Part shown: positions 8,487 to 27,431 of the stretch, piece after piece | Layout of the letters: every line of letters begins with the position of its first letter | How positions within the stretch are numbered: position 1 is the stretch's first letter | Assembly: GCA_965205425.1 (NCBI GenBank) | Contig: CBDBGZ010000009.1 | Coordinates: forward strand, 1,120,001 to 1,184,000 | Direction of reading: 5' to 3' | From: Nitrosopumilus sp. | Lineage (GTDB): Archaea; Thermoproteota; Nitrososphaeria; Nitrososphaerales; Nitrosopumilaceae | DNA: 64,000 bases | The notes under the pieces: model-generated | The model's database searches: none | What the model was told of the DNA's origin: nothing | What the model saw: only the letters and a program-made list of their open reading frames with translations | Translations under genes and position numbers: made by a program

Positions 8487-9137
8487 TTAGTCCCACTTTG
8501 ACCAAGCGGCCATCCATCGGTATGTCCAAGTGTTCAATTTACAACCTAAAGCTGCAAATGTACATGCCAATACTGCACCTGCACCTGCACCGAGAGCAAC
8601 TGGGCTGTTATAGAATTTACCTACTTGCGGTTCGATTGGTGTCATATATGGTGGCAATGTTGGTCTTGGATATTTGAATGCCGTTTCTAGTGGGTCTGCT
8701 ACTGTTATCAGGTTTACCATGTTGAACAATGGTAATGACATTCCTACCAGTACGCCGCCAAACAGTATCAAGGAGTGCTTGTTCTTCTTTGTTGCCCAAT
8801 AGACCAAGTCCAACAGCATTGCTGAGGGTAGCCAAACTGGAGTTACAATGAAGTCATATGGATATCCGAGTGCAAACCATGCACCTTTTGCTATCCATGT
8901 GTATACTGTCATAATTAGAGCGTAGTACGTTGCTGTGCCTGGAACGCCTGTAAATGTAAGATAGTATGTAGCACCTACAATAAGCATCAACGTTTGCGAT
9001 ATTGAGAATACCGTGTACGAAGTCCAAGCCCAGTCAGTGTAGAAGATGTAGTCTCCTGCATTAATTGTTAACAGTGTTGAGTTAACTGCAACTACTACTA
9101 TGAATAAGTAGTGTGTACATCGTCTTAACCAGACCAT
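8487..9137 (-). CDS. amoA: ammonia monooxygenase subunit A
   Basis: MVWLRRCTHY...WMAAWSKWD, 216 aa. Confidence 0.98.
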   Translation of the reverse strand: MVWLRRCTHYLFIVVVAVNSTLLTINAGDYIFYTDWAWTSYTVFSISQTLMLIVGATYYLTFTGVPGTATYYALIMTVYTWIAKGAWFALGYPYDFIVTPVWLPSAMLLDLVYWATKKNKHSLILFGGVLVGMSLPLFNMVNLITVADPLETAFKYPRPTLPPYMTPIEPQVGKFYNSPVALGAGAGAVLACTFAALGCKLNTWTYRWMAAWSKWD

Positions 9138-23681: not shown

Positions 23682-24245
23682 ATGCCTCAAACTAAGCCAA
23701 TTGTTAGTGTTGAAAATGTTGTTGCATCTGCATCAGTAGACCAAAAAATTGATCTAATTGAAATTACTGAAAAATTTCCAGATACTGAATATCATCCAGA
23801 ACAATTTCCAGGACTTGTATTTAGATTAACAAATCCAAGAACTGCAACATTGATTTTTAGAACTGGTAAAATGGTGTGTACAGGGGCTAAATCAGAAGAG
23901 ATGGCAATCAAAGCAGTCAATACAGTTGTTCAAAAATTAAGAAAGGGTAAAATCAAGATCAAGAAAGATGCAGTTATTACAGTTCAGAATATTGTAGCAG
24001 CAATTAACCTTGGTGGAAAAATCCATTTAGAAAAAGCAGCAAGAACATTACCAAGAAGTATGTATGAACCAGAGCAATTCCCAGGGCTAATTCATAGAAT
24101 GTTAGATCCTAAAACAGTTATTCTATTATTTGCATCAGGTAAATTGGTGTGTACAGGGGCTAAAAAAGAATCAGATGTTTATCGTTCAGTTCACAATTTG
24201 CATGCATTATTAGAAGAAAAAACTCTAATGATATATGATCAATAA
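23682..24245 (+). CDS. tbp: TATA-box binding protein
   Basis: two repeats with YxPEQFPGL and GKxVCTGAK. Confidence 0.98.
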   Translation: MPQTKPIVSVENVVASASVDQKIDLIEITEKFPDTEYHPEQFPGLVFRLTNPRTATLIFRTGKMVCTGAKSEEMAIKAVNTVVQKLRKGKIKIKKDAVITVQNIVAAINLGGKIHLEKAARTLPRSMYEPEQFPGLIHRMLDPKTVILLFASGKLVCTGAKKESDVYRSVHNLHALLEEKTLMIYDQ

Positions 24246-24265: not shown

Positions 24266-24487
24266 TTGACTAAAGATATTTTTGAAGATGAAAAAATTAA
24301 GCTAACTCCTAAAACAGGTTTTGATTTGATTGGCATAGATTATTTTGCAGAGCCTGGAAACCAATTATATTTAATAGAACATTTTGAAATGTATCAAGAT
24401 GCTTTGAATGCAAAAAAAGATAGAAAAAATCAAGACGAATATTTTGTGCTCTATAAAGGAACTGGAAATGAATTTTTCTGCAGATAG
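24266..24487 (+). CDS. hypothetical protein
   Basis: 73-aa ORF after tbp. Confidence 0.65.
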   Translation: MTKDIFEDEKIKLTPKTGFDLIGIDYFAEPGNQLYLIEHFEMYQDALNAKKDRKNQDEYFVLYKGTGNEFFCR

Positions 24488-24558
24488 ATTAGAAAAATCA
24501 TAAAACTTTACTAAATTTTACAATCTCTCTTATCATTCAGTTAAAAATTAAAAAAACC

Positions 24559-24809
24559 ATGCCTAGCGAAACAAGTGATTTGATTGATACATTATATGAA
24601 AAAGAAAATCCAGTTCAATCTAAACAAATTTCTAAACAAATTATTCGTAAAAGTCCAAAAGCAAAATATCAGATTTTTGATGAAATAGAGTTTACACGTG
24701 GAAGAGAAGTTCTTGGAGATCTAATTGTTCATGGAATGATAGCTTCGGGTGGAACTGACATAGATTGGCTGATTGAACACAAAGGGAGTTTCATCGTTCT
24801 AGAATTCAA
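24559..24809 (+). pseudogene. truncated PD-(D/E)xK-like protein cut by an IS end
   Basis: TDIDWLIEHKGSFIVLEF stops exactly where the IS terminus at 24810 begins. Confidence 0.6.
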
Positions 24810-24891
24810 CAGTACTTGGGAAAGTAACTACCTGACATCTTCCAAATAGTATTGAGATTTTATTCTCCTAAAGAAATCAACAATAATAACT
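24810..24891 (-). mobile_element. right-end remnant of an ISH3-like IS
   Basis: terminus CAGTACTTGGGAAAGTAA and C-terminal peptide IIVDFFRRIKSQYYLEDVR*, homologous to 43635-43737. Confidence 0.7.
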
Positions 24892-24901
24892 ATAACCATA
24901 T

Positions 24902-25993
24902 GTGCCAAAATCAGCTAGGAAATTAGATGGTACTTGCATTCGTATCAAGAAAGTAAGAAATGCAAACAAACACACTACCCTTCCTGAAAAAAAATATTTG
25001 ATGTTTGTAGGATTGGATGTTCACAAGAACTCTGTACAGGTGGCAGCAGTAGATGAGATTGGCAAATTGTTATTTAACAAAAAGATTTCCAGTGATTTTT
25101 CTGCTATTAGCAAAATTACATCCAAAATTCCAAAGAACGCAAAATATGTTTTAGAGTCATCATCTGTCTGGTATGGCCTTTATAGACACATGACAGACAA
25201 ATTACATCTTGATGTTATACTATCTAATCCATACAACACAAAGATAATAGCATCATCACTCAAAAAGACTGATAAAATTGATGCGTACCATCTTGCAAAT
25301 TTGCTACGAGGAGGATACATTGCAGAATCATTCGTGCCAGATCACACAATTGTGCAATACAGACAGCTTGTAAGACATCGACACAAGATTGTGCGCATCA
25401 TTGTAAAGATGAAGAATTCCATACATGGTATTACACTACAGGAGGGAATCCATATCAAAGCAACACCATTTTCCTCAGAACACATACGTGCACTTGGAAA
25501 ATTGGAGAGTTATAGAATAGATTCGTACCTACAAAGCATAAAATTTCACAAAAAGGAGGTTGCAAAAATAGATTCCATGATACGTCGCATGGTAAATGAT
25601 AATCCTGATGTGTGTATTTTGACATCAATACCTGGAGTTGGACCATACACTGCATTGAGCATATTCTCAGAAATTGCAGAGATTAGTAGATTTTCAAATT
25701 CTCACAAGTTATGTGCATATGCAGGGATTGTTCCATCGGTGAGAAATTCTGCAGATACAATACATCACGGAAGAATTACAAAGAGAGGAAGCACCATGCT
25801 AAGATGGTTGCTAGTGGAGGCAATTCATGCACATGTTAGATACGCACCAGATAGCGACATTACAAAATTTTACAATCGCATTAAGAAAAAGAGAGGAACC
25901 TCAAAGGCAGCAGTTGCTGCTGCATCAAAGTTATTGCGTGTCATATATTGGATGCTAAAAGAGAGGAGAGAATTTGTGCAAAATTACAGTTAG
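24902..25993 (+). CDS. IS110-family recombinase/transposase, intact (start uncertain, possibly ATG 25001)
   Basis: DEDD RuvC motifs GLDVHK, LESS, KTDKIDA; SIPGVG; YAGIVPSVRNSA (catalytic Ser); AAVAAASKL. Confidence 0.95.
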   Translation: MPKSARKLDGTCIRIKKVRNANKHTTLPEKKYLMFVGLDVHKNSVQVAAVDEIGKLLFNKKISSDFSAISKITSKIPKNAKYVLESSSVWYGLYRHMTDKLHLDVILSNPYNTKIIASSLKKTDKIDAYHLANLLRGGYIAESFVPDHTIVQYRQLVRHRHKIVRIIVKMKNSIHGITLQEGIHIKATPFSSEHIRALGKLESYRIDSYLQSIKFHKKEVAKIDSMIRRMVNDNPDVCILTSIPGVGPYTALSIFSEIAEISRFSNSHKLCAYAGIVPSVRNSADTIHHGRITKRGSTMLRWLLVEAIHAHVRYAPDSDITKFYNRIKKKRGTSKAAVAAASKLLRVIYWMLKERREFVQNYS

Positions 25994-26150
25994 GACTGCA
26001 AGTCGCGTTAGAGTTTTTGAGGGACAAGGCCTCGTCTGATAACTGCGAACAATCCTAACTAGGATGAAGATAGCATTGAGAGAATAGTCTCGTATGGATA
26101 CATGTCCGCATCTTTTGATTGAAACCATTCTCTAGCGAAAGCCATGCCCT
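25988..26150 (+). ncRNA. putative bridge RNA (seekRNA) of the IS1111-type element
   Basis: two stem/internal-loop/hairpin domains whose loop strands match the target flanks and the donor junction. Confidence 0.78.
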
Positions 26151-26198
26151 GATGTATGGAAAGAGAAGAAATGTATAAAAACAATTCACATGGATAAC

Positions 26199-27156
26199 TC
26201 TTGTTCCCTTCTCTGGCATCTTTCTTGCATATGCCTTTGCAGGGGTCTCAAGATTATCCCAGTCAAGTGACATGTGTGGCTTTATGTGATTGTACCAGTG
26301 GACCAGCTCATCAATGGTGCCAAACCATTTCTGCTTTCTCTGAATCTCGCCGTGAAATCTTTCGAGCTTGCCATTGGTTTGAGGATGGTTCACTCTTGCC
26401 ATGATATGCTTTATCTCTAATTTTACCAGTTCTTGCTCAAACTGGGATGCTCCTTTTCTCTTGTATTCTGATTGGTTTGCATAAAACTGGGAGCCATGAT
26501 CAGTTAGAATTGATGCAGGCCTACCGTGCTTTGCAATTGCCTCATGTAATACTACAAGTGCGTTATCTGTTGTTGCCTCTGCAAACACTCCATGAGAAAC
26601 GATAAACCTTGATGCGTCATCCTGGTAGCATAAGAACCATCTGCCATCATCTAGCTTCTTCCAGTCAGTATGCCACATGGAGTTTGAATATGTCCTTTCA
26701 TATCGAACCCACTTTCGTCTTCTCCTCTTCTTTGGCTGAGCTTCTGCCAACCCTTCATCTCTCATAATTTTGTGTATGGTATTGTGAGGTATGTGTGTTC
26801 CAGTAGTATCAATTATTTTCTCCAAGAATACTGCAGAACACCTGAACTTTTCAAATGTAGACTGGACAGTCTGCACCATCTGCTCTGTGATTATTCCCTT
26901 TGGCCTTCCAGACTTGCCTAGGATTGGAACTGCACCAGTACGGCGATACCGTGAGTAGAGTTTCTGCACCCACCGAACAGATATCTTCATGGATGAGGCA
27001 ACGTCTGCGTTCTTGGCACCGTCCTCTTTTGACTTGATTATCCAGGATATCTGGATTGGATCTAACTTTTGCATAATCTTGTGATTCTTTCCTCTTTTCC
27101 AAACGTATCTTGACTTTAGTCTGGAAATAATGGGGTGAACTAATTTGAGGATAATA
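26199..27156 (-). mobile_element. IS481-family element, 3'-truncated by the IS110 (transposase start about 27074)
   Basis: WHTDWK, DDASR, TDHGSQF, HPQTNGKLERFH, YNHIKPHMSL; no matching right TIR. Confidence 0.85.
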
Positions 27157-27431
27157 GACTCTACAATTTCCTTGACATTTTCTTTTGCATCTTTAATTTT
27201 GAAAGTGTAATCAAACAGTTGCCTTCCTTCAGGCCAGGATATTTTGATGTGTTTTTTGTCAGTTACCTCAACTGATGCAATCTGAGAATGCAACCTCTCA
27301 AAGAATATTCCTTTTGATTTCTGCTCCAATACAATTGCATTTGTGGTAACATACATGATTCCTTTACCATGTGGAGAATCGATTTCAAGCTCTTTTTCGA
27401 TTTTTTCATCATTTCTTAATACTAGTGTCAT
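27157..27431 (-). pseudogene. N-terminal fragment of a PH-like domain protein cut by IS481
   Basis: GIMYVTTNAIVL strand pattern; fused in frame to IS481 in the ORF track. Confidence 0.6.

Follow-up and report, generated by a model that had tools for sequence, protein, structure and literature searches.

An apparently chimeric insertion sequence of Nitrosopumilus, probably of the IS1111 type, and a predicted RNA whose loop strands covary with the insertion sites of its family

Here we describe a mobile element of Nitrosopumilus sp. that carries, downstream of its recombinase gene, a predicted guide RNA of the bridge or seek type. It lies in a 64-kb stretch of DNA, hereafter the window (64,000 nucleotides; positions 1,120,001 to 1,184,000 of contig CBDBGZ010000009.1, assembly GCA_965205425.1), where it occupies positions 24888..26195 on the plus strand, 1308 bp reading AACTATAACCATATGTG ... 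CACATGGAT, with ends taken from empty sites. The recombinase gene (24902..25993, +) would yield 363 amino acids (aa) from a GTG inside the left inverted repeat and includes a conserved 330-aa core starting at an internal ATG (25001), from which core residues are numbered below. Non-coding sequence amounts to 202 nt at the right end (25994-26195) and, at the left end, to 14 nt before the GTG or 113 nt before the ATG. The left flank is a short repeat, R1 (24804..24887, without assigned strand), and the right flank is the interior of an IS481-like element (26196..27431, minus strand) whose transposase gene is interrupted 15 codons short of its end. The genome to which the window belongs (G000; contigs C2, C4, C5, C7 and C9) is referred to as the own genome, L-numbers denote related loci in other assemblies or metagenomes, and element A and element B are two sibling elements of the same family. 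An original prediction, made from the DNA letters of this locus, had read it as an archaeal IS1111-type element with a bridge RNA whose guides match its own target and donor.

The open reading frame (ORF) 24902-25993 is intact, and its product matches PF01548 (DEDD RuvC-like, N-terminal; 8.9e-22) and PF02371 (Transposase_20, C-terminal; 1e-22), scoring 244 bits against the NCBIfam equivalog NF033542, 'IS110 family RNA-guided transposase' (cut-off 140). An alignment of six family members shows no variation at core residues D6, E52, D91, D94 and S250; S250 falls in VRNSA, placed by HMMER opposite the ESG serine region of the IS621 recombinase, and KTDKIDA aligns with KTDTVDA of IS621, the N-terminal alignment being weak. 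Matches in the Protein Data Bank, to IS621 (3.6e-7) and ISCro4 (5.6e-8), cover the C-terminal half only. An intact DEDD/Ser recombinase followed by a right end of about 200 nt, as originally read, is therefore borne out by ORF, domains and invariant residues alike. An archaeal AmoA is encoded within the window (8544-9092, minus strand; 386 bits against PF12942), and all 66 of 66 related loci in reference genomes come from Nitrosopumilus or other Nitrososphaerota assemblies. Together, the domains and family models, AmoA and the taxonomy of these loci confirm an IS110-family element in an ammonia-oxidising archaeon.

The IS1111 group of this family is recognised by subterminal inverted repeats of 7-17 bp and a serine motif of the form GL-P----S(T)G; for the motif, SG, TG and occasionally TA are mentioned by Siddiquee et al. 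(2024, PMC11187229). The recombinase described here reads GIVPSVRNSA, with the serine present and A as the next residue. Inverted repeats measure 5 bp in the window copy (ATGTG/CACAT) and 8 bp in element B (ATGTGAAT/ATTCACAT, 6 and 4 nt from the ends). The longer non-coding end and the predicted RNA lie downstream of the recombinase gene, as the IS1111 group requires, and insertion without target duplication is seen in the family at a 135-copy target and at a paralogous empty site, both described below. Judged by the family models, the amoA gene, five covarying helices and guide-flank covariation, the element is very probably an IS110-family insertion sequence of the IS1111 type with a bridge or seek RNA after the coding sequence, in agreement with the original prediction. 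That prediction had also called the system compact; with proteins of 330-363 aa and an RNA of about 120-200 nt it is not unusually so, and these sizes are close to those of the bacterial IS621 system.

The own genome holds five full copies of the element, 95-98% identical to the window copy, and about 12 partial ones, at different places. All five full copies span the equivalent of 24886-26197, with ATAA common to both junctions. For one of them (C9:39377-40690) a paralogous empty site reads ...GATCAGTGACAAATTACAATATAC, and the filled site reads ...GATCAATG-ATAA-CTATAACC... on the left and ...CACATGG-ATAA-TTACAATATAC on the right. Another genome (G031, which holds L042-L052) contains the 15-16-nt motif TTTGCT(T)GATTCATAC 135 times, against 0 occurrences of a reversed-pattern control; filled sites there read TTTGCT|AACTATATGTG...CACATAGAT|(T)GATTCATAC, that is, TTTGCT|AACT...AGAT|GATTCATAC, with no duplicated bases. 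Evidently the motif is part of a short repeat scattered through that genome, into which members of this branch of the family insert. Both flanks of the window copy also occur uninterrupted: three copies of R1 read CAACAATAAT|AATTTCAAAG, a fourth having the same junction with the element, and of 21 rows of the IS481-like element (PF00665, 1.7e-11; NF033577, 191.7 bits, short of the cut-off of 224), 18 show it uninterrupted as GCTCATCAAT|AACTCTTG. On the basis of three kinds of empty site, the element extends from AACT (24888) to GGAT (26195) and inserts without duplicating any bases.

These ends differ from those first drawn, in which the element began at 24894, inserted into a target TAATAACT-AT-AACTCT, was closed in its second RNA domain by an AGAGAAT/ATTCTCT stem and had its left tip TAACCA guided by UGAUUG. 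With regard to the ends, this anatomy can point to 10 of 12 left junctions in the own genome that read RTAACY-AT-AACC, and to element A, which by itself does start at AACCAT. The empty sites, however, put the first base 6 nt further left and place AACTAT inside the mobile unit, and copies with GGCCCT-AT, TTGTAC-AT and GTAACC-AT at the junction argue against a fixed ATAACY target. Because the element starts at 24888, TAATAACT (24884-91) consists of four bases of flank (TAAT) and four of element (AACT): its 7/8 match to the RNA is real, but it is a match to the junction, and the proposed target mixes flank and element while its two halves come from different sites. Two candidate starts, 24894 with a core AT at 24892-93 and 24900 with a core at 24898-99, were dropped because the empty sites contradict them. 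Taking its ends together with its fold and guides, considered below, we regard the earlier anatomy as very unlikely.

The left and right flanks of the window copy are two unrelated repeats, and hence stem from two different insertion sites, from which it follows that this copy was rearranged after insertion. The reciprocal junctions (left part of the IS481-like element with the left end, and right end with the right part of R1) were not found in the own genome, nor was joined right-end/left-end sequence in the own genome or in any family locus retrieved. Contigs of four DNA sequencing runs yielded no joints, whether of a circle or of an empty site, and showed loose ends at copy boundaries only. 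Empty sites were also sought in 30 relatives of the genus and order, where none was usable, the flanks being repeats or too diverged; the only usable one for the copies of the window genome in that comparison was the paralogous site in the same genome. About 20 IS481-like copies are present in the own genome, the one in the window having lost its last 15 codons to the insertion, and a second (C7:83045) bears a 20-nt remnant of the same element right end at the same position. At C5:230348-230431 and C5:228197-229383, R1 plus ATAACTATAACC is joined to the reverse complement of another copy's left flank, an arrangement that resembles an inversion with its breakpoint at the element's left end; the other copy involved is in addition interrupted, near element position 1185, by about 1.15 kb of inserted DNA.

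The right end contains every string in which the original prediction had seen two RNA domains, each where it was placed: AGTTAGGA at 25988 with TCCTAACT at 26053, TCGC/GCGA, GAGG/CCTC, AGAGTT at 26010-15, TGATAACT at 26037-44, AGAGAAT at 26079 with ATTCTCT at 26127, ATGGATA at 26094-100, TGATTG at 26116-21 and, in the flank, AACTCT at 26196-201. Helices were derived from RNAalifold and visual inspection of an alignment (A1) of right ends from 42 distinct family members of the Nitrosopumilus type. Five emerged, all on the plus strand. P1 (25989-95 with 26053-59) closes a target-binding domain (25989..26059) and overlaps the TAG stop codon at 25991-93; within it, P2 (26003-07 with 26044-48, spanning 26003..26048) encloses the target loop and the hairpin P3 (26019-22 with 26030-33), both P2 and P3 showing compensatory changes. 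Px (26062-66 with 26103-07), closing a donor-binding domain (26062..26107), and the hairpin P4 (26078-81 with 26088-91) were both returned by RNAalifold. Paired cells in A1 amount to 93.2% for P1, 98.6% for P2, 99.4% for P3, 99.5% for Px and 98.2% for P4, or 97.3% over all 25 pairs, of which 10 change on both sides; none of 500 shuffles reached these pairing and compensation values, and sliding the partners lowered pairing to 33-45%.

Searched against 80 metagenomic loci, a covariance model of the five-helix core gave 20 hits at E<=1. Of these, 18 are located on the coding strand, immediately 3' of the recombinase gene, and they include relatives with recombinases only 36-43% identical and a much higher GC content. 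The alignment of these metagenomic relatives (A4) was itself fitted to the model, a caveat on its pairing figures. Pairing there reaches 95.3% of cells, and compensatory changes are seen in 20 of 25 pairs, with changes on both sides in 7/7 pairs of P1, 4/5 of Px and 3/4 of P4. The sequence data thus point to a predicted RNA in which five helices frame two internal loops, one for the target and one for the donor. For the originally proposed fold the outcome is mixed. Its first domain, with the outer stem, TCGC/GCGA and the GAGG/CCTC hairpin, is kept by compensatory changes. In place of its second, GGAUG/UGUCC encloses an internal loop with a GAGA/UCUC hairpin. The earlier AGAGAAT/ATTCTCT stem is paired in 81.5% of cells over its first four pairs (AGAG/CTCT), which speaks for it, but its AAT/ATT portion is paired in only 47.5% and ATG/CAT in 79.4%, against 98-99% for Px and P4, and P4 has nine fully compensatory sequences at a column where the earlier stem has one. 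A local ATCCTA/TAGGAT hairpin, obtained from a fold that started after the stop codon and so missed P1, was dropped because P1 shows compensatory changes. By eye, a long-range AUAGC/GCUAU stem and an AGC-GNRA-GCU hairpin at 26131-41 are further candidates.

The two strands of the target loop behave as guides. The 5' strand (26008..26018, +; UUAGAGUUUUU), the right-target guide, holds AGAGTT (26010-15), the reverse complement of the right flank AACTCT (26196-201). Across 56 distinct insertions in 24 guide classes, an exact run of at least 7 nt with the insertion's own junction was found in 37, compared with 1.3% of non-own pairs, in which a guide is set against the junctions of other guide classes; 14 of the 24 classes showed such a match at least once, examples being ACAATCATAAC (11 nt, L053), GCAATTT (L032) and ATGATTCATA (L079). 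The original assignment of AGAGTT as a right-flank guide is thereby sustained, since it sits in the strand that is complementary to the right flank family-wide. The 3' strand (26034..26044, +; GUCUGAUAACU), the left-target guide, has the same sense as the left junction: in 27 of 43 insertions it matches at least 4 nt of the flank adjoining the element (4.3% of non-own pairs), and in 22 of 43 the run is at least 5 nt (0.9%). It ends in AACU (AACC in element A), the four bases with which the element begins, and this strand therefore reads through the left flank and two junction bases into the element's end. The two junction bases of the target need not be AT; CT, TT and GT occur and are matched by the left guide. 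Covariation between guides and targets in homologous elements, on which the prediction hinged, was accordingly found for both strands of this loop.

Variation is concentrated in the same place. Among 14 near-identical right ends, 6 of 11 columns of the guide 5' strand vary as opposed to 24 of 191 elsewhere (Fisher p=0.0018), which marks the right-target guide as the fast-changing part of the RNA. The same logic extends to distant relatives, among them L131, with guide matches of 10, 9 and 8 nt. Such data bear on the idea that the right end is an array of protein-binding DNA sites, the target being chosen by the protein with no RNA involved. An array of this kind could also explain why the right end is better conserved between relatives (81-96%) than the protein (42-62%). 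Yet changes on both sides of 20/25 pairs in distant relatives point to a folded single strand, loop strands and flanks vary in concert with the protein almost constant, and experiments on IS1111 and IS110 elements show RNA guidance (Durrant et al. 2024, PMC11208160; Siddiquee et al. 2024, PMC11187229), so that we give this idea almost no credence.

Px and P4 frame an internal loop of the same geometry as the target loop. Its 3' strand (UAUGGAUAC) contains the left-donor guide AUGGAUA (26094..26100, +), a same-sense counterpart of the right tip CATGGAT and the base that follows. The tip is GGAT in 37 insertions whose guide is AUGGAUA and AGAT in 14 (three lineages) whose guide is AUAGAUA, a covariation that includes a switch between two very close forms of element A and has three exceptions, the guide being unread in two insertions; L076 combines AUGGGUA with the tip GGGT. 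The identity of ATGGATA with the right tip, recognised from the start, is thus one that covaries. For the other end of the donor, the original candidate UGAUUG was rejected: it varies (UGUUUG, CAUUUG, GGUUUG) among elements with an identical left end, the last of the features that count against the anatomy starting at 24894. A likely alternative is AUAGC (26070..26074, +) in the 5' strand of the donor loop (AAGAUAGCAUUG). This strand ends in AU-UG before the hairpin, as does the 5' strand of the target loop, and the five bases before AU-UG are complementary to left-end positions 2-6, with a mean of 4.47/5 for pairs from one and the same lineage (15 lineages) versus 1.95/5 for non-own pairs, tracking left-end variants such as ACTAT, ACCAT, ATGGT, ATGGA and ATAAC. 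We rate this guide as likely, because the table was read by hand and the register chosen afterwards.

Comparison with its siblings suggests that the window copy is a chimera, joining the left-end interior and recombinase of element A to the outer hexamer, right end and RNA of element B. On its own, element B has the sequence flank-AACTAT-ATGTGAATAAG...CACATGGAT. Beside an identical flank (ATCACACAAATCC, common to A and B sites), element A is found nested in B, between AACTAT and ATGTGAA, as flank-AACTAT-(AACCATATGTGCC...CACATGGAT)-ATGTGAATAAG.... The window copy has the outer hexamer AACTAT (24888..24893, +), identical to the first 6 nt of B's left end, followed by the left end of A (24894..24901, +; AACCAT plus AT, the first two bases of the left inverted repeat). 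That repeat, ATGTG (24900-24904), is the inverted counterpart of CACAT (26187-26191) in the right tip (26187..26195, +), which continues with GGAT, its final AT being the crossover dinucleotide of the donor. The protein of A is 100% identical to that of the window copy, and A's own RNA differs. Measured against the nested pair, the window copy shows 99.2% identity to A over positions 1-1094 and 84.8% identity to B over positions 780-1308; its right end is 95-97% identical to the right ends of B and about 70% to those of A. Contig loose ends place the switch from A to B at 25975.

The guides of A fit the left end of B, because the reverse complement of A's 5' guide strand is ATGTGAAAAC, B's inverted repeat, and its 3' guide strand AAACUAUAACC equals AACT-AT followed by A's own AACC. 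Since A is thus set to insert 6 nt inside the left end of B, the simplest history would be an insertion of A into B, with the two later fused by a deletion running from one homologous gene end to the other. The core ORF is intact in 5/5 chimeric copies and in 3/3 nested copies of A. With five intact-ORF copies at different sites, and a near-identical one, L023, in another assembly, the chimera has probably been mobile, either by itself or with help in trans.

The N-terminal part of the recombinase and the outer right end may be linked in expression. The extension that begins at the GTG (24902-25000) is basic, 30-41 aa long and open in frame in 23 of 23 distinct N-termini of the family, and the recombinase of L044 lacks the internal ATG; the real recombinase is probably the 363-aa form. 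In the right end, a conserved TATA-like box, TATAAAAA (26174..26181, +), points outwards 14 nt before the tip as a candidate promoter, this A/T-rich octamer keeping a fixed distance from the tip in 42 of 42 A1 rows. Across joined ends its centre would lie, by our count, 26.5 nt from the GTG in A or B and 32.5 nt in the chimera. The former is the usual TATA-to-start distance in archaea. Joining of the ends could then switch on a leaderless recombinase mRNA from this box, a parallel to ISEc11 and IS621, for which junction promoters have been cited.

Some 30 nt into the left end (24920-24935), in the DNA for the conserved basic extension, the 5' strand of the donor loop (26065-26076) recurs in the same sense; this internal copy resembles an inverted copy of the left end's first six bases. 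It changes along with the RNA across the lineages L021, L033, L055 and L035, reading AGATGGTACT in A, AGATAGCAT in B-like elements, AGATGGTAG in L055, and CACTGG. The window chimera is mismatched here, its left end having A's version and its RNA B's.

From the observed family membership, element ends, helices and guide-flank covariation we propose that the element moves by RNA-guided, conservative site-specific recombination. The right end would be transcribed, probably as the 3' tail of the recombinase transcript, and after processing would fold into two internal loops, each closed by a stem. In the target loop, the 5' strand would pair with the DNA top strand to the right of the insertion point, and the 3' strand with the bottom strand to its left, continuing for 4 nt (AACU) into the element's left end. 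The donor loop would bind the bottom strand of the right tip through AUGGAUA in its 3' strand and, most likely, the top strand of left-end positions 2-6 through AUAGC in its 5' strand. Bound to both loops, the DEDD/Ser recombinase would join a circle (CACATGG-AT-AACT...) to the target with no bases duplicated. The predicted circle junctions are CACATGGAT|AACTATAACCATATGTG for the chimera and CACATGGAT|AACTATATGTGAAT for element B, and the target of the window RNA is predicted to be NNCTGAT|AACTCTAA. The 10-bp spacer first expected between the inverted repeats at joined ends applies to element B; with the corrected end it would be 16 bp in the window copy.

Several observations weigh against this proposal, for the window copy in particular. 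The run of its guide with the right flank is 6 nt, a length reached by 3.5% of non-own pairs; only two junction bases of its left flank match the left-target guide; and its flanks derive, as noted, from two unrelated repeats. Its recombinase is 62% identical to that of B and yet is joined to B's RNA, with a repeat of just 5 bp. AUAGC pairs with its left end at 4/5 positions, and the right-donor register, read by hand and chosen afterwards, relies on 4-5 nt. A search of Rfam with 24400-26700 returned three chance-level hits, far below gathering scores, and no matching family. Finally, a number of copies sit at flanks that fit the guide of another copy better (C9:483635, C9:86701, C5:207253, L059, L070, L074 and L080). 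The copy at C9:483635 has the guide AGAGTT but the flank CATTTTA, which fits the AAAATG guide of two other copies, and the flank AATTTCA of C9:86701 and C5:207253 fits the guide of L023, which has the same flank in another genome. These misfits call for an RNA acting in trans, a change of guide after insertion or exchange between copies, each of which could explain them.

It is possible, although we lean against it, that the window copy is a non-autonomous or dead chimera that moves only with the proteins or RNAs of B in trans, or not at all. The two-base match on the left, the split flanks, an inverted repeat of 5 bp where B has 8, a TATA-to-GTG spacing 6 nt longer across joined ends than in A or B, the mismatched internal left-end motif that agrees with the donor loop in natural elements, and some chimeric copies at flanks suited to other guides would all fit this interpretation. 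It is harder to reconcile with five chimeric copies, 95-98% identical, at five different places and with all ORFs intact, or with the near-identical L023 in another assembly; moreover, the variant guide of the window copy, AGAGTT, fits its own right flank, and a seekRNA is reported to be common to transposases that are 46% identical (Siddiquee et al. 2024, PMC11187229).

Extending the proposal of RNA-guided movement to the history of the family, we give an even chance to a fuller account in which A parasitises B by guide targeting, the nested pair moves on B's ends, the chimera has multiplied with B's RNA, and an archaeal junction promoter gives rise to a leaderless mRNA. If true, it would represent natural RNA-guided parasitism of one insertion sequence on another, together with natural swapping of guide-RNA modules between diverged recombinases. 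The family informs how far diverged recombinases can share a guide RNA, and its at least 24 natural guide variants on one scaffold, each with insertion sites, form a ready-made reprogramming data set. In addition, the link that has been proposed between IS110 recombinases and Nop5 proteins could be studied here in an archaeal setting, and the family helps to explain the heavy insertion-sequence load and the rearrangements of these genomes.

Elsewhere in the own genome, further IS110-family genes, 68-69% identical in DNA to the window gene, are located at C2:53504-54338, C5:1660-2494, C9:239276-240110, C9:1194380-1195076 and C4:3-699. Upstream of the element, at window positions 23682-24245 (+), a 187-aa ORF with two similar halves resembles, by eye, a TATA-box binding protein. 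Directly 3' of the right end of a metagenomic relative (L111, about 1330-1434) there is a tandem array of the 18-nt unit GGTTTGTTTTGATTCTGT.

Descriptions of bridge and seek RNAs date from 2024 and concern bacterial elements. Bridge RNAs are predicted in 93% of IS1111 elements, in the right end (Durrant et al. 2024, PMC11208160), and 662 archaeal IS110 recombinases have been counted (Vaysset et al.). A term search of the open-access literature returned no paper on such an RNA in Nitrosopumilus or ammonia-oxidising archaea, though supplements may list predictions. The element is most like the seekRNA elements of the IS1111 group (ISEc11, ISKpn4, ISPa11 and ISPst6; Siddiquee et al. 2024, PMC11187229): a DEDD transposase with a G--P----S region, a long non-coding region 3' of the gene, subterminal inverted repeats, a top-strand match 5' of the bottom-strand match with the two overlapping in the target, and targets that are often repeated sequences and are not duplicated. 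It differs from them in its archaeal host, in a serine motif of SA rather than SG or TG, in a short inverted repeat (8 bp in B, 5 bp in the chimera), and in an evident second, donor-binding loop, the cited portions of Siddiquee et al. describing target matches.

With IS621 (Durrant et al. 2024, PMC11208160; Hiraizumi et al. 2024, PMC11208158) it shares two internal loops with two guides each, the right-donor guide being a proposed one here, right guides on top strands and left guides on bottom strands, guides that extend onto the partner DNA in the manner of handshake guides, a DEDD plus Ser active site and, by prediction in the present case, a circle with a junction promoter. Unlike in IS621, the RNA is encoded at the 3' rather than the 5' end, the strands of each loop follow one another in reverse order, the donor's crossover dinucleotide is AT while the two bases of the target need not be, and the bottom-strand guide extends by 4 nt instead of a dinucleotide. 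ISPpu9 of Pseudomonas putida (Pares-Guillen et al. 2025, PMC12288879) is likewise an IS110-family element in repeats with a small-RNA gene downstream of its transposase, and is reported to have separate copies of the RNA module elsewhere in the genome; ISPpu9 is bacterial, and its modular likeness to the Nitrosopumilus element is a lead only.

This kind of RNA-guided recombinase is known, and the Nitrosopumilus element is a new archaeal example of it, its unusual feature being that one element targets its sibling. In 2003, an IS1111-type element was reported to prefer the terminal repeat of another mobile element as its target. The guide of A, whose reverse complement is ATGTGAAAAC, is similarly set on an inverted repeat, the ATGTGAAT of B; the difference is that the target here is a sibling of the same family, and that nesting gives rise to composites and to a chimera in which the RNA has been swapped.

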